Assembly: GCA_937983635.1 (NCBI GenBank)
Contig: CALJZR010000001.1
Coordinates: forward strand, 1 to 45,689
DNA length: 45,689 nt
DNA from: an uncultured bacterium
GTDB lineage: Bacteria; Patescibacteriota; Patescibacteriia; Patescibacteriales; UBA12465
Direction of reading: 5' to 3'
Shown here: positions 6,901 through 42,975 of the stretch, one piece after another
How the letters are laid out: every line of letters begins with the position of its first letter
Position numbering within the stretch: position 1 is the first letter of the stretch
Position numbers and translations under genes: made by a program
The notes under the pieces: generated by a model
Databases searched by the model: none
What the model was told of the DNA's origin: nothing
Seen by the model: only the letters and a program-made list of their open reading frames with translations

Positions 6901-7929
6901 GTGGCCGGACAGGATGATATTACCCAAGGTTTGCCGAGAGTGGAAGAAATCTTTGAAGCCCGTAGCCCGAAGAAAAAAGCTTTAATTTCCGACGTCGCCG
7001 GTAAAGTTAAGATTGAATTTGCCCAGAAGACTATTAAAGATCAGGATGGCAAGGACATTGTTGTTCCTAATATGCAAGCCAAGATTTTGAGTATTGTTTA
7101 TCGCGGCAAAGAACAGGAAAAGTATTATTTTTCTGAAAAGATTAACGAGATGAAATTAGCTTCTGGCTTAACCGCCAAAGATAAGAAAAAGTTAGCCGTG
7201 GAGGTGATGGTGGCTGACGGCGATAAAGTCGCTAAGGGTGTAGAATTATTCCGTGTCGGCGGCGAAAGTGTGAAAGCTAAGAGCGCCGGTGTCACCGCCG
7301 TTAATGACAAATTTATTGGTATCTCTAAGGAGGTTGATAAGATTAAAGAATTTTCTATTCTTAAAGGCACGATGTTGATGGTAAAGGATGGCGATACCGT
7401 GGAAAAGGGAACGCAATTGACTGAAGGCAGTCTGGATTTGCGCGAACTTTATAAGTTGAAGGGTGAATTAGAAACACAGAAATATATCATCCGGGAAATT
7501 CAGTATGTGTATTCTTCCCAGGGCCAGCCTTTGAATGATAAGCATGTGGAGATTATTGCTCGACAGATGTTCTCCCGCTATCTTATTAAAGATCCGGGTG
7601 ATACGGCCATGCTGCCGGGTGAAACCGTGGAAGCGGAGGTTTTCGAGCACGCCAATCAGGAAGTTAAAGTCCACGCTAAAGCCGACCGCTTATTAATGGG
7701 TATTACTAAAGCCTCTCTAACCACCGATAGCTTTTTATCAGCAGCCTCCTTCCAGGAAACTCCTCGAGTTTTGATTGAAGCAGCGGTTAATGGCAAGATT
7801 GATTATTTAGAAGGCTTGAAAGAGAATGTTATTATCGGTTGTCTTATTCCGGCTGGTACTGGCTATAAAGGCAAGAAAGTGCGCGATGAGTATGAACGCA
7901 TTCAGCCTCAAGCTACTACCGGAAAGTAA
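3937..7929 (+). CDS. rpoC: DNA-directed RNA polymerase beta' subunit
   Basis: 1330-aa ORF with the N-terminal zinc motif [23 protein letters not shown], the catalytic [14 protein letters not shown] and [15 protein letters not shown]. It lies directly downstream of rpoB. Confidence 0.98.
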
Positions 7930-7951
7930 AATATTAATTTTAGAATCAGAT

Positions 7952-7987
7952 AAAATCCCTCTTGGACAAAGAGGGATTTTTGTTTTT
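7952..7987 (+). terminator. Rho-independent terminator after rpoC
   Basis: AAAATCCCTCTT (7952-7963), loop GGAC, AAAGAGGGATTTT (7968-7980), then TGTTTTT. Confidence 0.7.
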
Positions 7988-8043
7988 ATAGCTGTTAATT
8001 TTATGAAAATCTAGTATAATAAAGGTGGGTTAAAAGAACTTAA

Positions 8044-18036: not shown

Positions 18037-18066
18037 AAAAAACTATCTTTATGAAGATAGTTTTTT
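18037..18066. terminator. Bidirectional intrinsic terminator between convergent rnhA and the por/pilin-like operon
   Basis: AAAAAACTATCTT (18037-18049), loop TATGA, AGATAGTTTTTT (18055-18066). The A-tract upstream and T-tract downstream let it work on both strands. Confidence 0.6.
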
Positions 18067-18092: not shown

Positions 18093-19397
18093 TTAGCGAC
18101 CACTAGGCGACCAGTGCCAAGGTTCGTTGGGGCTTGAGTTGAGATTGGCGTATAGACCCTGGGCATTCATACAGGCAGTTAAGCCTGAAGAATTATTATG
18201 GTCCCAAGTCATTTTTTTGCCATCTAGGCGGTAAAGGTCTAAGGCTACTCCTTTGCCATGATTGGAGCAACAAGGGGTAGCTGCTTGGGTGCCTTTTTCT
18301 GCTTTTATGGATATTTGTCGGGCCGGGGAGCGCCAAGCCGCACTTACTCCAAAGATATTTTTGCCCCCATTTTTTTCGCGGACGCAAGCCATCGCGGTAT
18401 TATATTTTTCTACAATTTCACTTTTTGCTTTAAGATTAGTACCAGCAATATTGGTCATTTTTCCTGGTTCCTGTTCGCCGTAGCCACGACAAATAGATAA
18501 ATCTCCATTTCTCGCAGCGGTGCAGCCTTCTTGATAAGGATTTTCTGCTTGGTCATTGGGCGTTGAAACTTCGGCGTCAGAGAAGTTTGTAGTTTCCAGC
18601 ATTTTTAGAGAGATAGATTTTAAGTTATTTAAGTCAGGGTTAATCTGGTCAAGAATCAGGTAGGTGCCCATGAGAATGATGATTCCGGTGACACTGCCTA
18701 AAATTAAATCTTTAGCCTGGCTTATTTTTGAAGCATCGCCGGCCGAGACTAGCCAGAGCAGGCCTCCGGCCATTAAGACAATCGCCGCGAGGATGCCGCC
18801 AACACCTAGGCCATATTTATAGACTCCTTGGATGTATTGGGCAATCCAGGGGATTTTACATGTTCCTGAATGGTCTTCTTGATTGGTGCAATAGGCGTCA
18901 GTGAGTTCGACGGTGTTAATAGGGATGGACATGATAGGAATTTGGAACTTAGCTTTAGTTATCCCAGATTCTTCTTCTCCCCCCGGGCAACAACAGATTG
19001 GTGGCATGTTTTGGCCGTTTACCATTTGATTGTCGGGTTTATTATCGGGGTCACATTTAGCATCCTCATCTTTTGTTTCTGTTTTTTTACATTCAGGGCT
19101 ATGGTGAGACCAGTCGTTGGGATAACCTAGTTCGATTCCAGTTAATGATTTTTGCCACCGGCAGTCGTAAGTAGTAGATATTTTGCAACAACACACCTGA
19201 TTTTCGGCTGGTATTCCGTTGCCGCAATTAAGGTGATAAGCTTCCATTCGTCCACCAGAAAGGAAGCAGGCTCCAGATGAAGTTTGACCAGTGGGTATTG
19301 TTTCTAGGCTGCAATTTTCCATTTTTGTTTCTGCCGTTGCTGAAAGTAATGGTAAAAATAGAGATATGATGGTAAAAATAAAAATTTTCTTTTTCAT
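18093..19397 (-). CDS. Exported Cys-rich protein: signal peptide, Cys-rich region, VirB2/TrbC-like 'T4SS pilin' two-TM core, C-terminal VanY/M15-type peptidase domain
   Basis: Signal peptide: MKKKIFIFTIISLFLPLLSATA. The N-terminal region (aa 29-180) has 15 Cys, including CCC triplets. The core is YGLGVGGILAAIVLMAGGLLWLVSAGDASKISQAKDLILGSVTGIIILMGTYLILDQINP. The C-terminus has WRSPARQ, S-N-H-G-K-G-V-A-L-D (SxHxxGxAxD) and E-P-W-H (ExxH), the zinc D,D-/L,D-peptidase M15 motifs. The start overlaps the porB stop (ATGA). Confidence 0.8.
   Translation of the reverse strand: MKKKIFIFTIISLFLPLLSATAETKMENCSLETIPTGQTSSGACFLSGGRMEAYHLNCGNGIPAENQVCCCKISTTYDCRWQKSLTGIELGYPNDWSHHSPECKKTETKDEDAKCDPDNKPDNQMVNGQNMPPICCCPGGEEESGITKAKFQIPIMSIPINTVELTDAYCTNQEDHSGTCKIPWIAQYIQGVYKYGLGVGGILAAIVLMAGGLLWLVSAGDASKISQAKDLILGSVTGIIILMGTYLILDQINPDLNNLKSISLKMLETTNFSDAEVSTPNDQAENPYQEGCTAARNGDLSICRGYGEQEPGKMTNIAGTNLKAKSEIVEKYNTAMACVREKNGGKNIFGVSAAWRSPARQISIKAEKGTQAATPCCSNHGKGVALDLYRLDGKKMTWDHNNSSGLTACMNAQGLYANLNSSPNEPWHWSPSGR
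18096..18440 (-). other. VanY/peptidase M15-like domain within the 434-aa protein
   Basis: aa ~320-434 carry RS-x3-Q, SxHxxGxAxD and ExxH in the canonical order and spacing. Confidence 0.65.
18603..18845 (-). other. T4SS-pilin-like (VirB2/TrbC-like) two-helix core, copy A
   Basis: aa ~185-265. It is near-identical in pattern to copy B at 20847-21098, sharing GGILAAIVLMAGG, SAG, SQAK, TG and INPDL. Confidence 0.6.
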
Positions 19398-20260
19398 ATT
19401 TTATAAATTGAAATATTCTTGTCGGCATTTTTTTGAATATGGGCAATATCTTCTGTTTTTAAGTGGCGGAAGCGACCTTGCATTTTTAAATATTCATCAA
19501 CCGGCTTAGCCTGAAAATTTTGATTGATGCTAGAGCTGCTTAATTGGCTGTTACTGTATTCAAGTAGGGGATATAATCCCGTCTGGACAGCTAGACGGGC
19601 GGCCGCAATCGCTTCATCTGTTTTAATTTTCCAGCCGGGTACACAGGGGGAGAGAATTTGTATATATGTCGGCCCCGATGTTGCCAGAGCCTTCTTCACT
19701 TTATTAGTGATATCATCAGGAAAAGCAGCGGTGCTTTGGGCAATGTAATTTAGTCCGTGGGCAAGAGCGATGCCAATCATATCTTTTTTTACTTGCTGTG
19801 CTCCGATGCTTTTTTTGTCAGCGGGGGTGGTGACCGTGTTAGCACCCCAAGGAGTGGAACCAGAAGCCTGGACGCCGGTATTGGAGTAAGATTCGGTGTC
19901 GTAGCAAATATAGAGAATTTCTTCGCCTCTTTCCCAGAGGCCGCTAATTAAGCCGATGCCGATATCATAAGTGCCGCCGTCTCCCGCTTGAATTACTACT
20001 TTAGTGCCTTTCTTTTTTTTTCGCAGAGAAGCTTTGACACCACTCGCGATCGCCGCCGAATTTTCGAATAAAGAATGAATCCAAGGCAATTGCCAGGCGC
20101 TTTGGGGGTGGGCGGTAGTAGTTACTTCTAAGCAGCCGGTAGCATTTACTAAAATCGTATCCGCGCTTAAAGCCCGCATCACTGCCTGTACTGCGCTTAA
20201 TTGGCCACAGCCGGCACAGGCATTATGGCCAGGGGTGAGAAAATTTTTTTTATATTCCAT
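19394..20260 (-). CDS. porB: Pyruvate/2-oxoacid:ferredoxin oxidoreductase beta subunit (TPP-binding)
   Basis: GHNACAGCGQ at the N-terminus, the GDGGTYDIG TPP-binding motif, and a length of 288 aa. Confidence 0.9.
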   Translation of the reverse strand: MEYKKNFLTPGHNACAGCGQLSAVQAVMRALSADTILVNATGCLEVTTTAHPQSAWQLPWIHSLFENSAAIASGVKASLRKKKKGTKVVIQAGDGGTYDIGIGLISGLWERGEEILYICYDTESYSNTGVQASGSTPWGANTVTTPADKKSIGAQQVKKDMIGIALAHGLNYIAQSTAAFPDDITNKVKKALATSGPTYIQILSPCVPGWKIKTDEAIAAARLAVQTGLYPLLEYSNSQLSSSSINQNFQAKPVDEYLKMQGRFRHLKTEDIAHIQKNADKNISIYKI

Positions 20261-20267
20261 ATCTTAA

Positions 20268-21275
20268 TTATTCAAAGTCTTTGTAGCAGCAGTATAAACC
20301 GCTGAAACATTCGCGACCATCCCCATTATCGGCGTAATATTTTTCTCCTGTTTGGCCGAGCTGACTGCATCTTGTTTCGGAACAGAAGGCTCCGGGTTCA
20401 GAGCCGCAAGATTCTGAGGCGTCAGCATTACCAAGATAGCACATGGAGAAATAGCAATAACCATTTAATTCTTCGCCAGTACCTGTTTCTTCACATCGCT
20501 CTCCGTCTTTAATTCCCAGGCAATTTGCGACTTTACCGGAACATTCTGGCCATTGGCTGCAACGATTATTTTTTAGTTCATACATTATTCTCAAATCTTG
20601 AACAAAGTAATTTCCGCAGTTTTCTTTAGTGGTAATTTTTTTGTCAGCATCAAAGCACCATACTACTTTGCCGTCGCAGTCTTTTTTAATATTACAGCCC
20701 ACGGTTATCATTTGGCAGCGACCACCGGAAGCTAAATAAATACCCGCTTCGCTGTGCTGATATGGAGTTCCATTTTTTTCTTTACAAGTTTTACTGTCCA
20801 TAGTTTCCGCCTTGCCATCGTATTCGCAACAGACAATACTAACTTTTTCAATTAATTTTATGGTGGCAAGACGGAAGTTGAGCAGGTCTGGATTAATGGT
20901 GTTTAACATTATCCAAGCGCCAAAAAGAAGGATGAGACCAGTAATACTACCCATAATTAAGCCTTTAGCTTGGCTAACCTTATCACTGCTGCCGGCTGAA
21001 GTCAGCCAGATAACGCCGCCGGCCATTAAAACGATAGCGGCCAAGATACCGCCGATACGGAGGCCGTAGTTATAAAAAGCTTGAATCATTCTAGCAATAT
21101 AGCTGACGTCATTTTCTTCCATGACAACGTTACTTTCAAATCCAGGTAAGCCTACCTGAGGCTGGAAAGTTAAAGGATCTTCAACAGCGGCTATTACCGG
21201 GAAGATGCTTAAAAAAAGTAGACCGGTAATGGCGAAAAATAGAATTAGTTTAATTTTTTGTTGCCGCTTGGACAT
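20268..21275 (-). CDS. Exported protein: signal/anchor, T4SS-pilin-like two-TM core, C-terminal Cys-rich domain (24 Cys)
   Basis: The ATG at 21275 (MSKRQQKIKLILFFAITGLLFLSIFPVIAA) is preferred over the track start at 21302, which would overlap porA. The core is YGLRIGGILAAIVLMAGGVIWLTSAGSSDKVSQAKGLIMGSITGLILLFGAWIMLNTINP. The C-terminal 190 aa is full of Cys (CC, C-x-C). The gene lies between porA and porB with gaps of 4 and 7 nt. Confidence 0.8.
   Translation of the reverse strand: MSKRQQKIKLILFFAITGLLFLSIFPVIAAVEDPLTFQPQVGLPGFESNVVMEENDVSYIARMIQAFYNYGLRIGGILAAIVLMAGGVIWLTSAGSSDKVSQAKGLIMGSITGLILLFGAWIMLNTINPDLLNFRLATIKLIEKVSIVCCEYDGKAETMDSKTCKEKNGTPYQHSEAGIYLASGGRCQMITVGCNIKKDCDGKVVWCFDADKKITTKENCGNYFVQDLRIMYELKNNRCSQWPECSGKVANCLGIKDGERCEETGTGEELNGYCYFSMCYLGNADASESCGSEPGAFCSETRCSQLGQTGEKYYADNGDGRECFSGLYCCYKDFE
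20847..21098 (-). other. T4SS-pilin-like two-helix core, copy B
   Basis: aa ~60-143 of the 335-aa protein, paralogous to copy A. Confidence 0.6.
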
Positions 21276-21279
21276 ATAA

Positions 21280-22437
21280 TTACCAAAATTTAAGACCCTC
21301 ATGTTGAGAGGATTTAATTATACTATTAATTGTTTCTAGGCTGATGTCGCGGCCGCCTAAGCCGACGATGTGATTGCTAAATATGCCTTTAACCGTTGGG
21401 CAAGCAGCTATTACATCCGCGTATAAGGGGCCGGTGGCGCCGCTTGATATAGCTTTTTCAATAATGGCGATTTGGTGGCTACGGCTGGCGATTCTTTTAA
21501 TATCTTCAGCGGGGAAGGGGCGGTAGCTGCGGATTTTTAGTAGCCCCACTTTATTTTGTTTTTTTAAAGCTTCTTTAATGGTGCCGCTGACCGAGCCCAT
21601 GGCGATTAAAAGAGTTTCCGCTTTTTGAGGCCCATAGTATTCCACTAAGCCATTATCAAAAATAGTTTTAATTGCTAGGGGTGAAGGTAATATTTTTTTC
21701 CAGCTGTGATAAGCGCTGGTAATTTTTGCAGTGGCTGCTTTTAGATCTTGATCTAAACGGGCTTTTTCTTGCCAGTAATATTCCGGGCTGAAAAAACCGC
21801 CGATCGTAATTGGCTGTTTAGGGTTAAGATAGGTGCCAAGCTTCGGCTTGTAGCTCGGAAGGTATTTTTTTATTTGTAATTTACTGGGAATAATTACATT
21901 TTCATGGGAGTGAGTAAGAATGAAGCCGTCGACATTTACCGTCACGGGAATATTTAAGCTTTCCGCTAATTTATAGGAGATAACATGCAGGTCAACCGCT
22001 TCTTGATGATTTTCCGCAAAGAGCATTATCCAACCAGCATCCCGCATGGCCATGGCATCGCTATGGTCATTCCAAATATTAATAGGAGCACCTACTGCCC
22101 GGTTGGCCACAGTCATAACTAGCGGCAAGCGTAAGCCGGAGGCGTTATATAAAACTTCAATCATTAGTAATAATCCTTGGGAGCTGGTGGCGCTATAGAC
22201 GCGGCTACCGGCTGCGCTCGCGCCCACTACAATTGAAGCGGCCGCAAACTCGCTTTCCGCTCTAAGGTATTCATAATTAGCTTTTCCCGAGGCTTTAAAC
22301 GAGGCTAAATCTTCAACAATATGAGTTTGGGGAGTAATGGGGTAGGCGGAAACAACCTCTGGCTGGATATTAGCCACAGTTAAAGAAATAGCTCGAGAGC
22401 CTTCCAGGAAGCTAGTTTTGGTGATATTTTTTTTCAT
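21280..22437 (-). CDS. porA: Pyruvate/2-oxoacid:ferredoxin oxidoreductase alpha subunit
   Basis: The ATG at 22437 (MKKNITKTSFLEGSRAI...) begins right after the porD stop. The track's longer start at 22521 would overlap porD by about 80 nt. It contains VSAYPITPQT and typical alpha-subunit length. Confidence 0.9.
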   Translation of the reverse strand: MKKNITKTSFLEGSRAISLTVANIQPEVVSAYPITPQTHIVEDLASFKASGKANYEYLRAESEFAAASIVVGASAAGSRVYSATSSQGLLLMIEVLYNASGLRLPLVMTVANRAVGAPINIWNDHSDAMAMRDAGWIMLFAENHQEAVDLHVISYKLAESLNIPVTVNVDGFILTHSHENVIIPSKLQIKKYLPSYKPKLGTYLNPKQPITIGGFFSPEYYWQEKARLDQDLKAATAKITSAYHSWKKILPSPLAIKTIFDNGLVEYYGPQKAETLLIAMGSVSGTIKEALKKQNKVGLLKIRSYRPFPAEDIKRIASRSHQIAIIEKAISSGATGPLYADVIAACPTVKGIFSNHIVGLGGRDISLETINSIIKSSQHEGLKFW

Positions 22438-22438
22438 T

Positions 22439-22720
22439 TTAGTAATCTTTAGCCATAATAATGGCTTTGACTGGACATTCAGCGGCACAAATGCCGCAGC
22501 CTTTGCAGTAGTCATAGTCAACTTCGGCCTTCATTTTACCGTTTTTATCCATTTTCATGAGAATACAGGCGTCGGGACAGAGCTTGGCGCAACGTGAACA
22601 ACCCACACAAACAGCGGCGTCAATTTGGGGTTTTTGGGTTCGCCAAGATCCAGTTTTATTGGCTAAGGCTGTTCCGGGCGGGGTGGCTGGCGATAAAGCT
22701 TTGTTATTTTTTTTGTCCAT
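22439..22720 (-). CDS. porD: Pyruvate:ferredoxin oxidoreductase delta subunit (2x[4Fe-4S] ferredoxin-like)
   Basis: Two cluster motifs, CVGCSRCAKLCP and CKGCGICAAECP, in 93 aa. Confidence 0.9.
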   Translation of the reverse strand: MDKKNNKALSPATPPGTALANKTGSWRTQKPQIDAAVCVGCSRCAKLCPDACILMKMDKNGKMKAEVDYDYCKGCGICAAECPVKAIIMAKDY

Positions 22721-23270
22721 ATCGATAAGCTTCTTTAACGGCCGTTTGATTTTTATTAATTATGTCCCTGCCTTTGCTTTGAAATTTTTCTGCCACGGCG
22801 CTAAGAAGCGATTTGAGAGTTATAAAGTTGGTAATTTGAGCAAAGGCGCCTAAAATAACGGTGTTAACAATATTTTTGCCTAGAAGGCGCAAGGCGATAG
22901 CGGTAGCGGGACTGCTGATAATTCTTTCAATTTTTATTTTATTGCCGCTTAAGCACTGTAATTCTTCGGGACTTTTATTGCTGTTGACAATTAAATAAGT
23001 CTGGGAGCTAATTCCGTTTAGAATTTCTTTATTCTCCAGGAGGCTTTCGTCTTGAATAATTAAAACATCCGGCTGATATATTTGTTCACGGGTAATAATT
23101 ATTTCTTTAGAAATGCGGGCAAAAGCCTGGATGGGGGCGCCACTTCTCTCTACGCCAAAAGAAGGGAAGGCCTGGGCATATAGGCCGTCTTTAAAAGCAG
23201 CGAGGGCAATTAGTTCCGCTGCTGTTACTACTCCTTGACCACCGCGGCCGTGAATTCTAATCTGAAGCAT
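22704..23270 (-). CDS. porG: Pyruvate/2-oxoacid:ferredoxin oxidoreductase gamma subunit
   Basis: The ATG at 23270 (MLQIRIHGRGGQGVVTAAELIA...) is the canonical gamma-subunit N-terminus and has an AAGGA upstream. The gene overlaps porD by 17 nt. Confidence 0.88.
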   Translation of the reverse strand: MLQIRIHGRGGQGVVTAAELIALAAFKDGLYAQAFPSFGVERSGAPIQAFARISKEIIITREQIYQPDVLIIQDESLLENKEILNGISSQTYLIVNSNKSPEELQCLSGNKIKIERIISSPATAIALRLLGKNIVNTVILGAFAQITNFITLKSLLSAVAEKFQSKGRDIINKNQTAVKEAYRYGQKK

Positions 23271-23283
23271 ATTTTCCTTGTGG

Positions 23284-24036
23284 TTATTGTGCCAGCAAAC
23301 CGTCAATCATGCTGGTAAAATTTTCTTCAGGGTAGAAGCCGGTAATTTTATAGCGATTAACAAACCAGCTAGGCGTTCCGGAGAGACCTAAGAGTTCGGC
23401 GTCGGCAAAATCGTCATTTAAACGATATAGATAGGTTTTGTTATCTAAACAACTATTGAATTTTTCCGTTTCTAACTTTATTTCGGCGGCTACTTCTTTT
23501 AGCTTGGCATTCAAAGCGGCGCTTTGGAGGCTGCTGATTTCCGTTTGTCGTTCAAACAATAAGTCGTGCATTTCCCAGAATTTACCTTGGGCTCCAGCGC
23601 AGTTGCCGGCAAGGGCGAGGTCTACCGAATTATCATGTAAGGGGTAGTCGCGAAAGGTGATGCGTATCTGATTGCCGTATTTTTTAGCTAAATTTCTGAC
23701 CACGGGAGCGGCTTGCTGGCAGTAAGGGCAGGCATAGTCAGAAAAAATTACAATTTTTACCTTGGCATCTTGCGGGCCAAGACTATAATTTTCCCCCCGT
23801 CCATCAATGGCGGCAGTAATTTTTTTTATTTCTTCTTCTTGGGCGGCGATACTTCCGCTCTCTCTGATATTTTTAACTTGATTAACTATATAGCTAGCCG
23901 CCGTAATGGCTCCAGCAATTATTAGAAAGATAAAAATTATGAGCATGATACCCCACCATTTTTTATACCAAGGGCGGAGTTTAACTTTGTGTCTTTCTTT
24001 CATTTCCAAATATTGGATACGCTCATTAAGGCTCAT
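23284..24036 (-). CDS. Membrane-anchored DsbA-family thiol:disulfide oxidoreductase
   Basis: N-terminal TM (WWGIMLIIFIFLIIAGAITAASYIV) and a thioredoxin-fold CPYC active site (FSDYACPYCQQAAP), with DsbA-like length and layout. It is the first gene of the minus-strand cluster. Confidence 0.85.
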   Translation of the reverse strand: MSLNERIQYLEMKERHKVKLRPWYKKWWGIMLIIFIFLIIAGAITAASYIVNQVKNIRESGSIAAQEEEIKKITAAIDGRGENYSLGPQDAKVKIVIFSDYACPYCQQAAPVVRNLAKKYGNQIRITFRDYPLHDNSVDLALAGNCAGAQGKFWEMHDLLFERQTEISSLQSAALNAKLKEVAAEIKLETEKFNSCLDNKTYLYRLNDDFADAELLGLSGTPSWFVNRYKITGFYPEENFTSMIDGLLAQ

Positions 24037-24096: not shown

Positions 24097-24125
24097 ATTA
24101 TATCACAAGTGCTATTTTGTGGCTA
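24097..24125 (-). promoter_or_regulatory. Candidate extended -10 promoter for the dsbA-por cluster
   Basis: On the minus strand it reads TAGCCA-17 bp-TATAAT, with TGA immediately upstream of the -10 (TGnTATAAT). It lies about 55 nt upstream of the dsbA-like ATG. Confidence 0.4.
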
Positions 24126-28238: not shown

Positions 28239-28288
28239 TTTGAGTAATCTTGTTTTGTCCAAAGTTTTTAAAATTGGCCAGATTACTT

Positions 28289-28933
28289 ATGTCTGATCAC
28301 CTTGAAGATCAACCAAAAAATGAGACTCATTCCTCATTTTTTAAAAGTTTGCCCAAACCGCAGCGAGCCGCTTTTTTATTTTTATCGGCCCTGAGTTTGG
28401 GCGTTCTTGTTTTATGGCTCTGGCAGTTCAACGCTCGCCTTTCTCGGCCTTTTCGCGTACCTGATACTGGCCAAAAAGAAGTGGCGGTTGACACTAGCGA
28501 TTTTGAAGCGGCTTTAATTAGTTTAGATTCTGATGGCGACGGTTTGACTGATATAGAAGAACGGAGCTTATACGCTTCTTCCCCTTATTTAGAAGATTCC
28601 GATAGTGACGGTATTGATGACCGCACTGAAGTAGAAAGCGGCAGCGATCCCAATTGTGCCGCTGGCCAAGATTGCGGTGCCGCTACCGCCCCGGCAATCA
28701 CTCCAATTATTGCCAGCTCCACCACCATTGATGTTGAACCTGAAGTTGGCGCCGATAGTGGCGATGAAACTGATCTACAGGCGATGATGGCGGGGCAAGC
28801 CAGCGCCGCCCAACTCCGCGCCATGCTTTTAGATAGCGGCGCTAACGCTGACATGATTAACCAGCTTAGCGATGAAGAATTACTCAAGACCTATCAAGAA
28901 ATGTTAGCCGAGCAGGGGACTGCGGCCCAATAA
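28289..28933 (+). CDS. Membrane-anchored protein with thrombospondin type-3-like calcium-binding repeats
   Basis: The ATG at 28289 (MSDHLED...) is preferred over the TTG at 28250. It has one TM (AAFLFLSALSLGVLVLWLW) and two acidic loops, DSDGDGLTDIEE and DSDSDGIDDRTE (28526-28630). It ends 22 nt before the giant gene. Confidence 0.7.
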   Translation: MSDHLEDQPKNETHSSFFKSLPKPQRAAFLFLSALSLGVLVLWLWQFNARLSRPFRVPDTGQKEVAVDTSDFEAALISLDSDGDGLTDIEERSLYASSPYLEDSDSDGIDDRTEVESGSDPNCAAGQDCGAATAPAITPIIASSTTIDVEPEVGADSGDETDLQAMMAGQASAAQLRAMLLDSGANADMINQLSDEELLKTYQEMLAEQGTAAQ

Positions 28934-28955
28934 AATATTTATTATTTTGTAGATA

Positions 28956-31900
28956 ATGTCTGTGAAAATTATGAATAAGCGATTTAATTTTTTAGCCAAT
29001 CGGCAAAAATTAGGGGCAGTGGCGATTTTAGCCGTCATCATTGGCTCTTTATTTTTAATCTCACCGCAGTCAGCGCAAGCGCAGATGGTGACAGCCGACA
29101 CTCAGACTGTTTCTCAGACTTTTATGCAAAAAGTTTGGGATTTTTTAAAGAAAGCTTATGAAAAAGGCGGCGCCTCGGCTTTTCAAAAAACAGTCAGAAC
29201 GGCTTTGAATAAAATTGCTTACGATACCGCTACGGCTCTTGGTTCTGGCGGCGAAGGTCAGCAGCCTTTATTTGTTACTAAAGACTGGGGAGAGTATCTT
29301 ACTCAAATTGGCGATGAAGCGGCCGGTTCTTTTATTGAAGACGCGGTTAATAATTGGAATGATGCCGATTGGGATAGTACGGGTAAGGGGAGCGCGAAAA
29401 ATGAAGAATGTACAGCCTCTTATGAAACCTGTGCTCGTGGCACCTTTAATACGGTAACTCGAGAATGGGAGGGCGGCTGTGATATTATCCAAAATTCCCA
29501 AGAGGCGGCTGAGTGTGAAAAAAAGTGCCAATCGGCGCTTTTGCAATGCGGGGGAGTAGTTACCGGCGCCGATGGGGTCACCGCCCCTAAAAGCAGCCGA
29601 ACTATCGCCGTTTGCCAACCCTCTTCCATTTCTGCCAAATTAACCATCGCCATGGGCTTGGTTGATTATAATCGCCCCGCAGCCCCTAATTGTACCGCCT
29701 CTGCTTTAGTGGAAAATTGGGATAGCTATGTTGATCGCATGACTGCTTTTAAAGAAGATGACTTTTTGGATAAGTTTGCCGGTATCTTCAATCCTGTTTC
29801 CAATGATCTCGGTATTTACATGGCCTTGCGGACAGATATGACCCAGAAGATGGCTACTTCTGTTGATACTTCCAAATTAAAATTAAATGCGGATAAGGGT
29901 TGGCTGGATATCCGCGATATTGCCGGCAATCCCAAAGGCATGCCTGGTGATGCTGCTACTCAGGCAGAGATGTCTAAGCAGGGCTATGTTAATAACATGG
30001 CCTCATTTTCCGGCGACGCTTTAATTGATGCCGCTAACGTCTTTTTAAATCAATTAGCTTTAACTGCCTTTAATCGTTACATGAGCAAACTGGGAGAAAA
30101 GACTCCTGATTCGGTTAGTATTAACAATCCCACTTCTGATCCGAAAATTGGTTATAGTGAGGTGGCGGTCAGGGAGAGTGCTGCTCAGATAATAGAACCC
30201 GACTTTACCGTCCGGGCTGACTACGACATTTTGTCTTCTCTCAGTATGTGCCGCGATCGCAACAATCCTGGCCCGGCCGAATGCGTCATTGATGATAAAC
30301 TGATGCAGGGAATTGTGGAGAAAAAAACAGTCGCGGAAGCGGCTAAAGAAGGCTATCTTCATAAGGAGTGGCTCTTTACTGCTGATTTTCGTGAGGGTTC
30401 TTATAGTCTGAGAAATTTGCAAATCATGCGCAAGTACCGCATTGTTCCTTTGGGCTGGGAAGTGGCGGCCAGTGCTAATAAAACAGCAACTCTAGTAGAT
30501 TTAATGTCCTGTTTCAGTAATTCCGATTCTTATAATGAATATACTTCTAACTTTGATATTAGAAATCAAGCTTGGTGTCGCGGTTTGGTTGATCCTAATT
30601 GGGTTTTGAAGGCGCCTCTAAATTATTGTGCTAAACAAGGTTACAGTGCTCAGATTCTTAATACTTCGGTTATTCCCAGTGTTGACGGTAATGGCAATGC
30701 GGCGGACACAATCCAAATCACCCGCGCTGAAGATTATTGCGCCGATGATAAAACTTGTATTAAAGAGAAGGCCGATGGTAGTTGCGAAGCTTATGGTTAT
30801 TGTCAGTCTGAGCGGCGCACTTGGAATTTTGATTCTAAATCTTGCCAACCGATTAATAATACCTGTAGCTCTTTGATTAATGTCAGCTCTAACCAGAAAG
30901 TGGCTTATTTGGAAAATACCTTAGATTATGCCAATTGTAATGCAGATACGGTTGGTTGCAAACGTTATTCTTTAATTGGCTCTTATGCTACTTCCACCGG
31001 TCAAGTCTCTTGGTCTCCTAATCCTACTGTTAATGCTTATTTTAATAATAAATTAGGTTCCTGTTCTTCGGCTGACGAGGGTTGTAAAGAAGTGATGCGG
31101 GTAAAACCGGGCTGGGGCTCAAACTTAATTATGGGCGCCGATTTTGCTAATGATAAGGTCGGCGATTCCTTGGCTAATAGCTTGATTAATAATTATTGGC
31201 CGGTCTGGTCTACTGGTAATCGCGCCGCCAGCATTATTGACGCTTCGACTCTTGGAAGCGGTTCAGTGGGTAAGGCGATCTTATTAGAATCTACGGGTAA
31301 TGTCGCTAGCACCACCATCGGACTTTATTCCGATAATGCTGTTTCTCTAATTCCTGATAATCTTAATATTCTTTCTGGAGAAACCTATACTCTGAGTGCC
31401 GATGTTTATTTAATTGAAGGCGACAAAGTTCATGTGGTCTTGGGTAATGATTATTTAGCAGCAGCTGAGACGATTGATAAAAATGCTTGGCGCCATGTGT
31501 CTGTTACTCGGAGTTTAAAGGAAAAGCCTTTGTCAGAAATGTCTTTCTCGGTGGTGGGTTATAGCACTGGTTCTCAAGTGCGTTTTGCTGTTCGCAATCT
31601 TAAGTTAGAGATGACTTCTTGGGATTCCGGCTTCTCGATTTACGGGGCTTATAAGGTTTATGAAAAGATTATTCCTCCTTATTTAGCTGAAGCCTGTTAT
31701 ATCAACACCAATCCCAGTAGTCCTGATTATCGTTTGCGTCCAGACGCTCCGGCTGTTTGTAATAATTTTGCTCGTCAGTGTAACCGTGATGAAGCTGGTT
31801 GCGAAAGCTATAAAGAGAATAGCACCGGTTTTACTGTAGCCGCTCAAGCGGTTTCCTCAGATTATTGCGATGCTTCTTGCGATGGTTATGATTTATATGT

Positions 31901-34900
31901 TTCCCGGGCTAATTATTTCTACTCTCCTTTTGCCGAAAAGATTATCCCGAAAAATAGCCGCTCCTGCAGTGCTGATGCGGTTGGTTGCAGTGAGTTTACT
32001 AATTTAGATGAAGTAGCGGCTGGTGGCGAAAAGAGAGAATACTATACTCAGTTGAAGCAATGTATTAAGCCCGGACCAAGCTGTGCCGATTTTTATACTT
32101 GGGAAGGGACGGAAGAAAGCGGTTATCAGCTTAAATCTTTGGTCTTAAAAAAAGATGATGCTGGCGACCCGGCCGTTACCGCTGATGATTCTCAGCTTTG
32201 TAGCGAAGCCATTTTCAACTTGCCGCCGAGCGACCCGGGCTTTAATCCTGATTGTAAACAATTTTATAATAAAGCGGGGGCGATTTCTTATCACTTAAGC
32301 GCCACCACTATCACCTGTTCGGATAATTGTCATAATTATCGCCTCTCCGAAAATAACGTTGATACTTCTATTACTCAAGCCCAGTGCAGTGGCATTGATC
32401 GTTTTTGGAGTGCTGCCTCTTCTGCTTGTTTCGTGTGTAAAAATGGTGGCGTTTGGAATGCTGAATATAATGCTTGTATTTATCAAGCAATTCCTAACGA
32501 AGGCATTAAATGTTCGGCCGCTCAAAACGGTTGCCGGGAGTATAACGGCAGTCTGGGCAATAACGTGAAGATGGTTGAAGCTTATAGTTTTGAGAATGGT
32601 ACCGATGGCTGGAAAGGCCAGTGTGGTGATGATGCCCGCAGTTCCGCTGTCGCTAATGTCAATAACGGTAAGTCGTTATTATATGATCGCGGCTCCAATT
32701 ACGGCAACGTTAATGTTCAAACAGAGTGTATCCAAAATAATAATGTAAGCTTTTTTGATAAATTTTTTGGCAGTGCTAACGCCGCTCCGGCTTCCTATAT
32801 CAAGCAAGTCGTTGGTCGTAACGTTTCTCAGGGCAATTCTTATAGCCTGAAGTTTACCGCCAGCGCTCCCTTGGATGCCAACGTCAGTTTTGCTTTCTTA
32901 AGCAGTCAGGATGAAATCGTCTATTTTAACGCCAGCGAAGGCGATATTACCGGTAAAATTACTATTTCTGGAAATAGCGAATGGCGAACGTATGAATTGA
33001 GCCTGCCTGAACTTAATCATAAAGTTGATGGTGATGAGTCTTTGATTATTATTTCTGATCGTGATTTCTTCTTGGATAACATTGTTTTAACGGAAATTCG
33101 CGATCGTTATTATTTAATAAAAAATACGAGCGAAGTGCCGGATGTTTGTTACTATGATATGCTGGATAATTATCAGGGAGCTGACTATAATCTCGGTTGC
33201 TCTTTGTATAATGACCGATCCGGCAATAATCATTATTTGCGCCAATTTAGCCGCCTTTGTCAGGAATCAGCTGTTGGTTGTGAGTTGATGGTGGATACCG
33301 CTAATTATGATGATTATAAGCCTGCGGTCTGGCACGATGATAATAATAATGGTGTTTGCGACTCCAACGAGACGGAATGCGTATCTGTGGCTGGGGACCG
33401 TTTCTTTTATGCAATTTATGACGAAAGCCGTCGTTGCAATAAAGCTGATTTAGGTTGCTCCCGTTTAGGAGAATCATCCTCATCTGGCTCCAACTTAGAT
33501 TGGAGCGATGTCTTTAAGCGCAATAACCCTAATAACTATAGTCAGTCATTATGCGCTGCTGCTGATGCCGGTTGCGAAGCTTGGCAATATACTGATGGCA
33601 GCGGACTTACTTATTTCAAAAATCCTGGCAATAACGCCTGTGTTTATCGGACTAGCACTAATCCCGATAAGCCGGGTAAGGCTTGGTATAAAGTGCCGGT
33701 TACTCGGTGTGATTTGAATAGTAATGGTAGCATTGATGGTACGGAAAAAAGCTTGGATATTTGTAAAACTGCCGATGATTGTGCTGGCGGTCGCCCTTGT
33801 TTAGTGGATAATAATGATTATGATTGTTCCGTTTCCTATTTTAAGACTGTCGGTTTTGGCGGCGGTGGCAATCAAGTTCCTGTGCCTTCCTTGGCAGCTG
33901 GTTTGTGTGAATCAGCTAGTTCTGGCTGTACGGAATATATTGATCCGGTAAGCACTTTCTCTTCCAACGTGGTTTATAATCCCCTTACGGAGATGAGCGC
34001 TAATGGTCAGTATTTAGGCTGGGAAATGGTTAATGGTTCCCGCCAACAAGATTTAACGCTTGAGCCGAACAAGCTTTATATTTTTTCGGTAGGCTATAAT
34101 GTTGCCAGCACCACTATTAATAATGATGTAATTATTAATTTTCCTTCCGGAGTATCACTTCTTCAAGAAGATAATAATTTCAGCACCGTAGCGAGTACAA
34201 GTTTGCGCATCCCCAGTACTCAGCCGAACAAACGCTTTATTTTCCATTCTCGTGGCAATATTGAAGCGACCGTTATTGGTGGCTGGCTTGGGCATGAAGT
34301 TATTTTAAGGGAGGCAATTATTGATTATCAGTTCCGTCAGAATGTTGATAAGACCACCTGTAATGGCATTGTAAATTTTGATAATGGTTGCGTTTTGTTT
34401 AATGAGCGCTCGGTTAATGGTGGAGCCGGACTACTTTCTTTGAGCGGCGGTTGGAACGCGGCTGCCAGCGTTGACGGACAGTCGCCTGCTAGTTGTTCTG
34501 CCGGTAATTGTAGCGCTAATAGGTTGGTAAAAGTTCGACCTAATCGCGTGTGCGCTTCTTGGCTGGACTGTTTAACTTATGCGGTGGATCCGGAAACTAA
34601 TCAGCGCACCTGTTATGCTTTAGGCGAGTGCAATAGTTTAAATGATAATAATGAATGCGCTAATTTTGTTAGATCATCTAATCAAATCTTAGCTTCTTCT
34701 AGTTTTGATATTACTAAGCGTGATGGTTATTCGGTCCTAAATAAATTGAATCTTTCGGGCATGAGAGAGGTTGGTCTTAATACTGAGGCTCATTATGACT
34801 TTGAAGATGCTAGCCCAAATATAACTTGCAAGTTGGTCTCTAATAGTACTTCCACTTGTGCTTTTGATAATGGGATTGTCGCTGATAGCATTATTGACAG

Positions 34901-37199
34901 TCCGACTAAGGCACCTACGGATTATCCAGCAGAAGGCAAAGCTTATTTGCGCGTAATGGGCGGTCAAATGATTTCACCTCACTCTTCTAATGCGCCTATT
35001 TCTATACAAAAAGGTCAAGATTATTATTTGAATTTTTTGGTTAATACTAAGGGCTCTGGGGTTGATGCCAAGGTTTGGTTATATAATGCCATTAATGGTA
35101 ATTTAATTACTTCTGCGACTTTTAGTTCTGTTAATGGTTGGGAGCGTCGAGTATTGAGGATTCCTGGCGCTAGTCTCAGCGCTGTTGATTCTATTAGAAT
35201 TTATTTTGGTGCTAATACGAACGCTAGGGATGAACGCTATGTTTATTTTGATGATATCAATATTGAGCCTGTGCTCCAGGTAGCTGGTGATAATGGCGTT
35301 AATAGTTATATTGCTAAAGAGTGTCGTCTCTATCCAACTCAAGATGCCACCTCTTGTACTAGTAAAAATAGCCAGGTTGTTAGTGATGGCTTAGTTGGTT
35401 ATTGCTTGCAGCATGACTTAGCCAATAAGAATGTCTGCTTGCTGTGGTATCCGATTGATCAAATTAGTGCGGCCTCGAAGTCAGCTCGTTCTAATCTTGG
35501 TTATCAAGGCGCCTATCCTCTTAATTATTGTACGGAAGCTAATGGTAATTTTAATCTGGTTAAAAAGGTTGTATTAAAAGTAATATACAAAAGAGGGGAT
35601 CATAGTAATGACGGCAACGGTGGTTATATAAATAGTAATAGCGATGGTTATACTGAAATTAATGCGGCTATTTGTGGAGACGCAATTAATTATCGAGCAA
35701 TAGTCACAAATAGAAAAGAAAACTGGAATTATGAAACTATATATTGCGTCCCTAGAGCTGGCACTAATGTTGTGATTTCCGGACCATCAACCAATATTGA
35801 ATTTTATGGCAACGTTTTGTCTTGGACTTGGGTAAAATATAATAGAATAGTTTCTGTGCCTGTTATCAATTGTACTTGTGGTTCAGACAATGATGCTTGT
35901 CCAGATGATTGCAGTCCTATTGATGAGATAAAAAATGCCGAGCCGCCCATTAGAGTTTTTGACTATGATCACCCCACGGTTGATGAATATCAATTAAAAC
36001 TTATTTCCTCTATTGATGAAGAAGAGGTTTATTATCCAACCTGTAACCGTTTTACTCAGGTTGTAGATGCGGCGGGAAATAATAAAGCTTGGGCCGGAAG
36101 AACTAGTAAGTCTAGCATTTATCCTTATGAGACTCCTGCTTTTTTCCGTGACGCCTCTAATTATTACGGACCAGCTTGTTACATTCCAGGGGAATGTATT
36201 GAAACTTGTGAATGTGGCACTCATTGCGATTGTGACTATGGGGCAGAATATTGTTCCGCTCCTTGTGGTATACCTGGTGATTGTTATGAATATGCTCCTG
36301 ATCAAGTTGTCCCTTGTGGTACCCCCGGTTCTTTACAGGATTCTAGCGCCTTTAATTTTACAAAATATGGGCGTCTACGTGATTTAGTTCCTTTTGGCGC
36401 CGCTACTTTCCCCGATGATTTTAATATTTTTGCGGCCGATGAGCCTATCATGTTCCGTAGTCAGAATTCCAGCAAATTAGACCAAAAGGTTTTTGCTGGT
36501 CGTCCTTATAGCTGTCAAGGCCTTGGCTGTGCTAATATTGGCTATTGTAGCTTAAACCCCCAGGTAATCTGTTTATTGGACAATACTGTTAGCTCTAGTA
36601 CCTCCTTAGTTAATCAGAGGTCTTGCGGTAGCGCTAATGGCACCTGCCTACCTTTATGGAACGCCTCTAAATTCACCTATACCTTCTATCCGGAGAATAT
36701 TTTAAAGAATGTTTTCTTAAAATCTTTTGCTGGATATAAATACAGTTCTAGTACTAACGCTTATATTATTGATGCCGCTCCCGGCTATAGCCAGCCTGCT
36801 GCTGTCGGTGGCTCTTACAATCCGGGCTTGTGTACGTCTGACAGTGCTCATTATTCCTCCAACGATTCCAGTTATTCGACTTATTGGTGCGGTGTAAAGC
36901 CGAAAATTAGCAATGTGAGATTAAACGGAATCCTCTCTACCAGCACGGGCATGTTTGATGTTTCTAAGCCAGGAATTTATACCCTCACATTCAATACGGC
37001 CGTTGACGTTGAACAACAACCTTTGCGGGAGTTAATTGTTGATTGGGGTGATAACTCTATGCAGAGCCTGGTAAATCAAGACCATCGTCCCGATGTTAAT
37101 AATCCTTATAAACTTTATCATTATTACCAGGGCGGTGCTGGTGTGTTGAAGATTGGCATCAAAGTTACCGATAATTGGGGATTTTATGCGAATTATTAG
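28956..37199 (+). CDS. Giant (2747 aa) secreted/anchored cysteine-rich surface protein (putative adhesin)
   Basis: This is an uninterrupted 8.2-kb ORF. It has an N-terminal signal/anchor (LGAVAILAVIIGSLFLISPQSAQA), many Cys, nine C-x5-G-C motifs, three jelly-roll/CBM-like modules and a C-terminal PKD-like module. Confidence 0.9.
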   Translation: MSVKIMNKRFNFLANRQKLGAVAILAVIIGSLFLISPQSAQAQMVTADTQTVSQTFMQKVWDFLKKAYEKGGASAFQKTVRTALNKIAYDTATALGSGGEGQQPLFVTKDWGEYLTQIGDEAAGSFIEDAVNNWNDADWDSTGKGSAKNEECTASYETCARGTFNTVTREWEGGCDIIQNSQEAAECEKKCQSALLQCGGVVTGADGVTAPKSSRTIAVCQPSSISAKLTIAMGLVDYNRPAAPNCTASALVENWDSYVDRMTAFKEDDFLDKFAGIFNPVSNDLGIYMALRTDMTQKMATSVDTSKLKLNADKGWLDIRDIAGNPKGMPGDAATQAEMSKQGYVNNMASFSGDALIDAANVFLNQLALTAFNRYMSKLGEKTPDSVSINNPTSDPKIGYSEVAVRESAAQIIEPDFTVRADYDILSSLSMCRDRNNPGPAECVIDDKLMQGIVEKKTVAEAAKEGYLHKEWLFTADFREGSYSLRNLQIMRKYRIVPLGWEVAASANKTATLVDLMSCFSNSDSYNEYTSNFDIRNQAWCRGLVDPNWVLKAPLNYCAKQGYSAQILNTSVIPSVDGNGNAADTIQITRAEDYCADDKTCIKEKADGSCEAYGYCQSERRTWNFDSKSCQPINNTCSSLINVSSNQKVAYLENTLDYANCNADTVGCKRYSLIGSYATSTGQVSWSPNPTVNAYFNNKLGSCSSADEGCKEVMRVKPGWGSNLIMGADFANDKVGDSLANSLINNYWPVWSTGNRAASIIDASTLGSGSVGKAILLESTGNVASTTIGLYSDNAVSLIPDNLNILSGETYTLSADVYLIEGDKVHVVLGNDYLAAAETIDKNAWRHVSVTRSLKEKPLSEMSFSVVGYSTGSQVRFAVRNLKLEMTSWDSGFSIYGAYKVYEKIIPPYLAEACYINTNPSSPDYRLRPDAPAVCNNFARQCNRDEAGCESYKENSTGFTVAAQAVSSDYCDASCDGYDLYVSRANYFYSPFAEKIIPKNSRSCSADAVGCSEFTNLDEVAAGGEKREYYTQLKQCIKPGPSCADFYTWEGTEESGYQLKSLVLKKDDAGDPAVTADDSQLCSEAIFNLPPSDPGFNPDCKQFYNKAGAISYHLSATTITCSDNCHNYRLSENNVDTSITQAQCSGIDRFWSAASSACFVCKNGGVWNAEYNACIYQAIPNEGIKCSAAQNGCREYNGSLGNNVKMVEAYSFENGTDGWKGQCGDDARSSAVANVNNGKSLLYDRGSNYGNVNVQTECIQNNNVSFFDKFFGSANAAPASYIKQVVGRNVSQGNSYSLKFTASAPLDANVSFAFLSSQDEIVYFNASEGDITGKITISGNSEWRTYELSLPELNHKVDGDESLIIISDRDFFLDNIVLTEIRDRYYLIKNTSEVPDVCYYDMLDNYQGADYNLGCSLYNDRSGNNHYLRQFSRLCQESAVGCELMVDTANYDDYKPAVWHDDNNNGVCDSNETECVSVAGDRFFYAIYDESRRCNKADLGCSRLGESSSSGSNLDWSDVFKRNNPNNYSQSLCAAADAGCEAWQYTDGSGLTYFKNPGNNACVYRTSTNPDKPGKAWYKVPVTRCDLNSNGSIDGTEKSLDICKTADDCAGGRPCLVDNNDYDCSVSYFKTVGFGGGGNQVPVPSLAAGLCESASSGCTEYIDPVSTFSSNVVYNPLTEMSANGQYLGWEMVNGSRQQDLTLEPNKLYIFSVGYNVASTTINNDVIINFPSGVSLLQEDNNFSTVASTSLRIPSTQPNKRFIFHSRGNIEATVIGGWLGHEVILREAIIDYQFRQNVDKTTCNGIVNFDNGCVLFNERSVNGGAGLLSLSGGWNAAASVDGQSPASCSAGNCSANRLVKVRPNRVCASWLDCLTYAVDPETNQRTCYALGECNSLNDNNECANFVRSSNQILASSSFDITKRDGYSVLNKLNLSGMREVGLNTEAHYDFEDASPNITCKLVSNSTSTCAFDNGIVADSIIDSPTKAPTDYPAEGKAYLRVMGGQMISPHSSNAPISIQKGQDYYLNFLVNTKGSGVDAKVWLYNAINGNLITSATFSSVNGWERRVLRIPGASLSAVDSIRIYFGANTNARDERYVYFDDINIEPVLQVAGDNGVNSYIAKECRLYPTQDATSCTSKNSQVVSDGLVGYCLQHDLANKNVCLLWYPIDQISAASKSARSNLGYQGAYPLNYCTEANGNFNLVKKVVLKVIYKRGDHSNDGNGGYINSNSDGYTEINAAICGDAINYRAIVTNRKENWNYETIYCVPRAGTNVVISGPSTNIEFYGNVLSWTWVKYNRIVSVPVINCTCGSDNDACPDDCSPIDEIKNAEPPIRVFDYDHPTVDEYQLKLISSIDEEEVYYPTCNRFTQVVDAAGNNKAWAGRTSKSSIYPYETPAFFRDASNYYGPACYIPGECIETCECGTHCDCDYGAEYCSAPCGIPGDCYEYAPDQVVPCGTPGSLQDSSAFNFTKYGRLRDLVPFGAATFPDDFNIFAADEPIMFRSQNSSKLDQKVFAGRPYSCQGLGCANIGYCSLNPQVICLLDNTVSSSTSLVNQRSCGSANGTCLPLWNASKFTYTFYPENILKNVFLKSFAGYKYSSSTNAYIIDAAPGYSQPAAVGGSYNPGLCTSDSAHYSSNDSSYSTYWCGVKPKISNVRLNGILSTSTGMFDVSKPGIYTLTFNTAVDVEQQPLRELIVDWGDNSMQSLVNQDHRPDVNNPYKLYHYYQGGAGVLKIGIKVTDNWGFYANY
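31131..31610 (+). other. Jelly-roll / carbohydrate-binding-module-like segment 1 of the giant protein
   Basis: The pattern ...GKAILLESTGN...YTLSADVYLIEGDKVHVVLGN...WRHVSVT...VRFAVRNLKLE resembles CBM_4_9/laminin-G-like modules. This is pattern recognition only. Confidence 0.4.
32583..33098 (+). other. Jelly-roll / CBM-like segment 2
   Basis: YSFENGTDGWKG...GKSLLYDRG...SYSLKFTASAP...EWRTYELSL...FFLDNIVLTEI is the classic F-E-x-G-x-x-GW start and F-x-D-[DN]-I-x-L end of CBM-type sandwiches. Confidence 0.5.
34791..35273 (+). other. Jelly-roll / CBM-like segment 3
   Basis: HYDFEDASP...GKAYLRVMGG...GQDYYLNFLVNTKG...NGWERRVLRIPG...IRIYFGAN...YVYFDDINIEPV. Confidence 0.5.
36897..37196 (+). other. 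PKD-like Ig-fold module at the C-terminus of the giant protein
   Basis: ...PGIYTLTFNTAVD...LIVDWGDNS...YKLYHYY...LKIGIKVTDNWGF matches the PKD pattern (WDFGDG-like, HxY, VTD-x-G). Confidence 0.5.
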
Positions 37200-40284: not shown

Positions 40285-40293
40285 AATATTTAT

Positions 40294-42969: not shown

Positions 42970-42975
42970 TTTTTT

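Follow-up and report, generated by a model that had tools for sequence, protein, structure and literature searches.

We find that a cluster of seven minus-strand genes at positions 18093-24036 of contig CALJZR010000001.1 (GenBank assembly GCA_937983635.1), from an uncultured bacterium of the Patescibacteriota (UBA12465), brings together genes of an energy-metabolism enzyme and genes of the cell envelope in the order dsbA-like, porG, porD, porA, pilX, porB, pilH. The whole stretch analysed, hereafter the window, is 45,689 nucleotides (nt) long. The arrangement is genuine and ancient and evolves under purifying selection; it probably represents one inherited operon in which two functionally separate modules are interleaved with no mechanistic link between them. 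One module would be a cytoplasmic four-subunit pyruvate/2-oxoacid:ferredoxin oxidoreductase (PorG, PorD, PorA and PorB); the other would be an envelope trio composed of a signal-anchored DsbA-type oxidoreductase with a CPYC motif and two exported proteins, PilX and PilH. We argue that the modules are separable because the trio exists without por and por exists without the pilin genes; neither needs the other. A preliminary description of this DNA had proposed a functional or regulatory coupling of energy metabolism with a surface structure. The data do not require it, and the two gene sets are neighbours by inheritance, not obligatory partners.

The same gene order extends across a clade of Falkowbacteria-type Patescibacteria. 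A scan based on PorA, taking one genome per species, yields 20 Patescibacteria loci and 60 loci from other phyla. Eighteen of the 20 (L001-L018, PorA 54-73% identical, including the closed chromosome CP066698.1) are Falkowbacteria-type, and every informative one reads dsbA-porG-porD-porA-pilin-porB, in most cases with another pilin gene behind porB; the sequences of L008 and L017 stop within porA or shortly beyond it. Searches with PilX and PilH homologues as query, down to 30% identity, always lead to the same locus, and the informative loci among them likewise carry a pilin gene after porA. With a hairpin profile, pilin-domain ORFs are detected at just two sites, those of pilX and pilH, both in the window and across 21 loci (~300 kb in total). 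Altogether 109 Patescibacteria loci were tallied, among which the metagenomic ones may include redundant populations: 72 have porA-pilin-porB in full (a single pilin gene in 69 of them, two in the other 3), 17 are partial and consistent with this order, one has porA and porB adjacent, seven lack por and 12 are too short for classing. In Falkowbacteria-type loci dsbA is the immediate upstream neighbour of porG in 66 of 66 cases, and the gene after porB is missing in 10 of 54. Spacing between porA and porB is 844-2780 nt in the clade versus 5-377 nt in the 60 loci from other phyla, none of which has a gene-sized gap at this site, or a dsbA homologue upstream of or beside por.

The survey of por operons in relatives that the preliminary description had proposed therefore finds both the porA/porB insertion and the leading dsbA clade-wide, and its concern that the insertion might be unique to one assembly, or the inserted genes pseudogenised in relatives, is not borne out. 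The ratio of non-synonymous to synonymous substitution (dN/dS), calculated against an 85%-identical relative, is 0.03-0.14 for all seven genes (0.03 for dsbA, 0.04 for pilX and 0.14 for pilH), and GC content is uniform over the cluster at 0.42-0.44. An origin in artefact or decay, that is a chimeric contig, pseudogenes or mis-called open reading frames (ORFs), has a negligible probability and was ruled out: some 90 independent assemblies, drawn from many samples, and one closed chromosome share the order, which also excludes chance; the frames are intact, with the low dN/dS values just given, and the cysteine and catalytic columns are conserved.

Such constancy may be read as adaptive co-regulation, in which the envelope genes are kept in the por operon so that their expression matches fermentative metabolism and the coupling between porB and pilH sets a ratio. 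We regard this as rather unlikely, given how the evidence divides. The preliminary description had pointed to a translational overlap between porB and the pilin-hydrolase gene, and this ATGA overlap is indeed kept in all gene-called relatives, which counts in favour of co-regulation. The pilin genes also turn over in place, with one or two copies and different C-terminal domains, while their position is kept. The Xth-dsbA-porG-porD segment (~5500-8000) is inverted in L008 and L018, which splits por between porD and porA: porG and porD diverge from porA-pilin-porB and the oxidoreductase genes lie in two transcription units. In both loci dsbA remains with porG-porD; in L018 porA-pilin-porB-pilin is left intact, and the L008 sequence stops shortly behind porA. 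Conserved order alone, however, is no evidence of selection for coupling, because the whole neighbourhood of about 20 kb is equally collinear throughout the clade (TSP3-repeat protein, KsgA, LeuRS, Xth, the cluster, RNase H, RecJ, LepA and MurJ), and the cluster is flanked by housekeeping genes in all relatives. Against co-regulation stand also the loci that lack the gene after porB and the failure to find any regulatory element specific to the coupling. Separately, we observe in one locus (L157, 5546 nt) the order porA-pilin-porB-pilin-porB-pilin, as if the porB-pilin unit had been duplicated in tandem.

Natural deletion variants bear on the question directly. Seven metagenomic loci have Xth, dsbA-pilX-pilH and RNase H with no por and with gaps of only 1-13 nt, one of them (L104) retaining dsbA and pilX alone; in an eighth, truncated locus (L103) pilX is followed directly by pilH with no porB. 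In single-protein neighbour-joining trees of DsbA and RecJ the por-less loci are nested among por-bearing relatives at two or three places (bootstrap 100, 78, 71 and 57), which suggests that por was lost repeatedly, in at least two lineages, and the trio retained. Presence of the trio without por in these lineages argues against co-regulation, as does the reciprocal condition, por without pilins, which is found in a sister clade.

This Buchananbacteria-type sister clade was sampled via PorG. All nine of its loci have a dsbA-led porGDAB and none has the pilin genes; their flanks vary (SecG and RNase J, an acyltransferase, or LeuRS). In some of these loci other genes occupy the por junctions. 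A gene for a cyclophilin-type prolyl isomerase lies between porD and porA in three loci (L173:2382-3116, L174:5834-6508 and L176:5814-6470), its product carrying either a lipoprotein signal (LSGC) or a membrane anchor at the N-terminus; with it, a por operon led by dsbA encodes another folding catalyst of the extracytoplasmic space. Between porA and porB we find a gene for an RmlA-like nucleotidyltransferase (L174:7687-8499) and one for a 62-residue protein with the pattern CxxC...CxxC (L173:4361-4549). A further locus (L172:4241-9768) has dsbA-porG, then three tandem genes for paralogous HExxH proteins (314, 337 and 343 amino acids, no signal peptide), then porA; porD is missing there and the DsbA active site is CPHT, not CxxC. 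Given that the sister clade holds cyclophilin, RmlA-like and HExxH genes at these sites, the por junctions have accepted different foreign genes in different lineages. That such insertions are again of envelope or secretory type, as the exported cyclophilin and the RmlA-like enzyme indicate, is the remaining point in favour of adaptive co-regulation.

In the window itself, listing the ORFs and searching them with profiles bear out seven closely spaced genes on the minus strand, at the coordinates given earlier, and the junction lengths claimed are identical once conserved starts are used. Start codons were fixed by homologue alignment because most of the seven genes lack a Shine-Dalgarno motif in front of them; an AGGA motif precedes porG and none is recognisable at the other six starts. 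The dsbA-like gene (23284-24036, 250 amino acids) matches Thioredoxin_4 (PF13462, 85 bits) and DSBA (PF01323, 62 bits), with CPYC at residues 103-106. A 13-nt gap separates it from porG (22704-23270), encoding the gamma subunit of 188 residues (PF01558 POR, 133 bits; TIGR02175 PorC_KorC, 193 bits against a cut-off of 81), which overlaps by 17 nt the delta-subunit gene porD (22439-22720, 93 residues; TIGR02179 PorD_KorD, 93 bits against a cut-off of 60). PorD contains two [4Fe-4S] motifs of the CxxCxxCxxxCP type, CVGCSRCAKLCP and CKGCGICAAECP. After a single nucleotide comes porA (21280-22437, alpha subunit, 385 residues; POR_N 228.6 bits, PFOR_II 78.7 bits), and after 4 nt pilX (20268-21275, 335 residues), whose product exceeds the cut-off of T4SS_pilin (PF18895; 29.2 versus 26.6 bits). 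As the preliminary description had stated, the porGDAB order is thus broken between alpha and beta by a gene for an exported protein. A 7-nt gap leads to porB (19394-20260, 288 residues), encoding the beta subunit that binds thiamine diphosphate (TPP; TPP_enzyme_C, 69 bits), the stop of which overlaps as ATGA the start of pilH (18093-19397, 434 residues; T4SS_pilin 19.5 bits, below the cut-off, and an M15 domain). The oxidoreductase is complete, in that alpha, beta, gamma and delta each have the expected domains or motifs. Best NCBIfam models for the Por subunits are PorA, PorB and PorC, all scoring below equivalog cut-offs (for PorB, 343 bits versus 405), and the substrate may be pyruvate, or 2-ketoisovalerate or another 2-oxoacid.

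PilX and PilH both start with a Sec-type signal peptide and contain two hydrophobic helices. Each has 20 cysteines; the 24 previously attributed to the protein encoded between porA and porB are thus an overcount. In PilX the signal peptide is followed by a VirB2-like helical hairpin (~57-135) and a beta-rich ectodomain (149-330) holding all 20 cysteines, whose columns are invariant or nearly so in an alignment of 56 family members. An AlphaFold2 model of PilX (mean predicted local distance difference test score, pLDDT, 82.5) has a long helical hairpin (helices 58-92 and 97-127) and a beta-rich disulfide domain. Foldseek places the hairpin beside the conjugative pilins 8dfu (TM-score 0.73 on target, probability 0.93) and 8exh (0.52), with E-values above 1 for these matches. 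The label pilin-like holds for a VirB2 hairpin of the kind found in type IV secretion systems (T4SS; PF18895) and not for a type IV pilin. No significant match to the fold of the Cys-rich domain was found in PDB or BFVD, and this domain occurs in only 15 representative clusters among 1.84 billion; given the lack of a fold match and the tiny family, it has no assignable function.

PilH is built differently. A signal peptide precedes an N-terminal ectodomain with 14 cysteines, a VirB2-like hairpin (182-271) and a C-terminal domain with the other six cysteines that resembles LAS/M15 peptidases of the VanY/LdcB type. Its description as a paralogue of PilX is correct for the 90-residue hairpin (54% identity, E = 1e-31) and does not apply to the rest of the proteins. 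The C-terminal domain carries the motifs SxHxxGxAxD and ExxH, as SNHGKGVALD and EPWH, and in the family alignment A2 residues R356, H380, D387, E425 and H428 are invariant, corresponding to the H-x6-D and E-x2-H ligand or catalytic positions plus an arginine. As a single sequence the domain falls below the Pfam threshold (VanY, E = 0.02); the family profile A2 detects the structures of YodJ (1.7e-8), VanXY (5.6e-7) and LdcB (1.9e-4), and the domain aligns with pilin-VanY fusion proteins. Motifs and profile together thus support the M15 assignment made earlier, and by sequence the domain is a LAS/M15 peptidoglycan peptidase of predicted activity. The AlphaFold2 model of PilH (pLDDT 49) was too poor and was not used. 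Relatives have a VanY/M15, an NlpC/P60 or a 3D domain at the pilH position; since these differing catalytic domains are all cell-wall hydrolase folds, a conserved muralytic role at the surface is indicated for the protein encoded here.

The DsbA-like protein has one hydrophobic segment (23-54) after an N-terminus with eight Lys/Arg residues, and from hydrophobicity and charge, by the positive-inside rule, its thioredoxin domain is predicted to lie outside the cytoplasm. Its nearest solved relatives are actinobacterial DsbA and Bacillus subtilis BdbD. That it would serve as the oxidase of the Cys-rich exported proteins had been proposed in the preliminary description and is supported, most strongly, by the fact that dsbA stays with the pilin genes after por is gone. 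Seven of 70 distinct DsbA homologues (L084, L122, L127, L133, L142, L172 and L173) have a monothiol CxxS or CxxT motif (CPYS, CPHT or CLHS).

It is conceivable that DsbA is linked directly to the oxidoreductase, for instance by handling the redox state of a thiol cofactor that is imported or by disposing of reducing equivalents, and that the pilins were added later. The leading position of dsbA in all 66 Falkowbacteria-type loci and in all nine Buchananbacteria-type loci, the latter despite other flanks, speaks for this, as does its absence beside por in the other phyla. Yet the predicted topology sets the thioredoxin domain outside and the oxidoreductase inside, neither the cluster nor the window encodes a membrane conduit for electrons or thiols such as DsbD, CcdA, DsbB or VKOR, and dsbA remains with the pilins upon por loss; moreover, a leader gene that bears the promoter is expected to stay attached without any functional link. 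We therefore hold a direct link to be very improbable. A related proposal, that the Cys-rich ectodomains and DsbA form an external electron sink for reduced ferredoxin, was rejected, since the trio exists without por, the cysteines of PilX and PilH are all outside the predicted hairpin helices, and there is no conduit protein.

The cluster is preceded by xth and followed by the RNase H gene, both on the other strand, so the seven genes form a directon. Within the spacer from which xth and dsbA diverge, a consensus scan finds on the minus strand a candidate sigma-70-type promoter with an extended -10 element (24097-24125; TAGCCA, 17 nt, TG-n-TATAAT) that matches 10 of 12 consensus positions and has the upstream TG. 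Part of this site, TGATATAAT, is invariant across five relatives whose proteins are ~50-90% identical, and AAATAGCCA is kept in four of the five; the element is a putative promoter. At the other end, where the pilH and RNase H genes converge, a bidirectional intrinsic-terminator-like hairpin (18037-18066) has a 14-bp stem of -12.6 kcal/mol (z = -4.16; none of 200 shuffles folds equally well) with an A run and a U run on either side; its AT-rich stem is why the consensus scan did not pick it up. The compact directon with a promoter and a bidirectional terminator that had been described earlier is thus upheld, its two signals being putative. Inside the cluster the matches do not rise above what shuffling yields (19 promoter-like versus 13.9 +/- 3.8, eight terminator-like versus 9.5 +/- 3.2), which makes the scan uninformative, and the four candidate sites or junctions that were folded gave no stable terminator (z from -2.1 to +1.7, no U tract), a result that is likewise uninformative and disproves nothing. 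These signals and strand switches are consistent with a single transcript of about 6 kb for the seven genes; several separate transcripts have the lower probability.

Under our reading of two separate modules, transcription would start upstream of dsbA, proceed through all seven genes and end at the hairpin. DsbA would oxidise the ectodomain cysteines of PilX and PilH to disulfides. In this model PilX, after cleavage of its signal peptide, would expose its 20-Cys domain outside the membrane beyond the hairpin, and PilH would expose both its Cys-rich N-terminal domain and its peptidase; the hairpin proteins would come together in the membrane, or in a short VirB2-like polymer, and so display a cell-wall hydrolase on the surface. 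Its target may be the cell's own wall or that of a host cell. The interleaving would then reflect a historical order fixed in the ancestor of the clade, persisting because the downstream genes would depend on the shared dsbA promoter and because the junctions are tight or overlapping, as at the ATGA of porB and pilH.

A number of observations weigh against this reading. The dsbA gene leads por in two clades and in three upstream contexts, which operon inertia explains and does not prove. The genes inserted in both clades are mostly of envelope or secretory-folding type, so that adaptive co-expression could be at work. Among the window ORFs we find no match to the DsbB/VKOR partner for which the preliminary description had suggested a search, nor to BdbC, even when E-values up to 1 are allowed for unassigned ORFs. 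Nor is any T4SS ATPase, channel or other T4SS family recognised among the remaining ORFs of the 45.7-kb window. Judged by their motif, the DsbA homologues with CxxS or CxxT cannot act as classical oxidases. Finally, genomes without por at this site may carry it elsewhere. A more far-reaching possibility is that the dsbA-led por operon of both clades is itself a selected expression platform, its internal junctions repeatedly recruiting exported, envelope or host-contact genes such as those for the VirB2-hairpin proteins with their varied hydrolase domains and for the exported cyclophilin, and with its DsbA leader tied to the oxidoreductase; we consider this unlikely. If true, surface remodelling would be made in fixed proportion to fermentative catabolism.

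Elsewhere in the window, two regions deserve mention. Three consecutive plus-strand ORFs at 39697-43938 have no Pfam match even at E up to 1; they encode 195 residues with C-terminal hydrophobic segments, a polytopic membrane protein of 891 residues whose C-terminal region is long and charged, and 320 residues, the last within a kilobase of 25.7% GC versus ~42% for the window. This may be foreign or fast-evolving DNA. At 28250-37199 the TSP3-repeat protein gene is followed by an ORF of 2747 amino acids without a Pfam match; the pair is syntenic in relatives, and the counterpart in L081 (2737 amino acids) has a faint CBM_4_9 match.

Patescibacteria account for a large share of bacterial diversity, mostly resist cultivation and are thought to live attached to host cells, and their surface machinery is poorly understood. 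The locus defines a compact, clade-wide envelope module (DsbA, a 20-Cys VirB2-hairpin protein and a hairpin-anchored hydrolase), a concrete candidate for wall remodelling or for attack on a host wall, and it raises the question of how disulfides are formed in organisms thought to be quinone-free. It is also a natural example of unrelated genes long resident in a core metabolic operon. Because the deletion variants show that the modules are separable, caution is called for when function is deduced from operon membership in streamlined genomes.

How does the cluster compare with known systems? The succession porG(C)-porD-porA-porB is that of four-subunit por operons in archaea, Thermotoga and Helicobacter, and the cluster agrees with them in its canonical gamma-delta-alpha-beta order, its intact TPP domain and both cluster motifs of delta; the nearest PorG relatives outside Patescibacteria are archaeal. 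It differs from them in its dsbA-like leader, in the exported-protein gene of about 1 kb between alpha and beta and in another such gene coupled to beta. Disulfide oxidoreductases serving pilus or pseudopilus proteins include Bacillus subtilis BdbD, which ComGC requires, TrbB of the F plasmid and actinobacterial DsbA/MdbA. Like these, the DsbA-like protein, which has a weak match to TrbB (8e-7), is a CxxC thioredoxin-fold protein, predicted to be exported, that is co-encoded with pilin-like substrates that would contain disulfides; unlike them, it has no adjacent BdbC, DsbB or VKOR, leads a metabolic operon and is monothiol in some orthologues. VirB2-like pilin genes and pilin arrays (PF18895) have been described in Patescibacteria (Microb Genom 2025, PMC12102498), and the PilX and PilH hairpins belong to the same Pfam family. 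In contrast to those pilins they have no virB4 or other recognisable T4SS gene nearby, carry large Cys-rich ectodomains and in one case a hydrolase, and are encoded within a metabolic operon; the same article does not mention por, ferredoxin or thioredoxin and reports no Cys-rich or hydrolase ectodomains and no DsbA partner. Conjugation in monoderms employs VirB1-like cell-wall hydrolases such as PrgK, TcpG and TrsG (PMC12102498). PilH resembles these as a membrane-anchored peptidoglycan hydrolase alongside T4SS-type components, its relatives using NlpC/P60, a fold related to CHAP; it departs from them in that the hydrolase is fused to a VirB2-like hairpin and in that M15/VanY, NlpC/P60 and 3D domains alternate within one orthologous position. 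Full-text literature searches yielded no description of a por-pilin-dsbA arrangement. Thus the por operon, the VirB2-like proteins of these bacteria and the pairing of DsbA with pilins are each already known, and what appears to be new is their combination in one operon.

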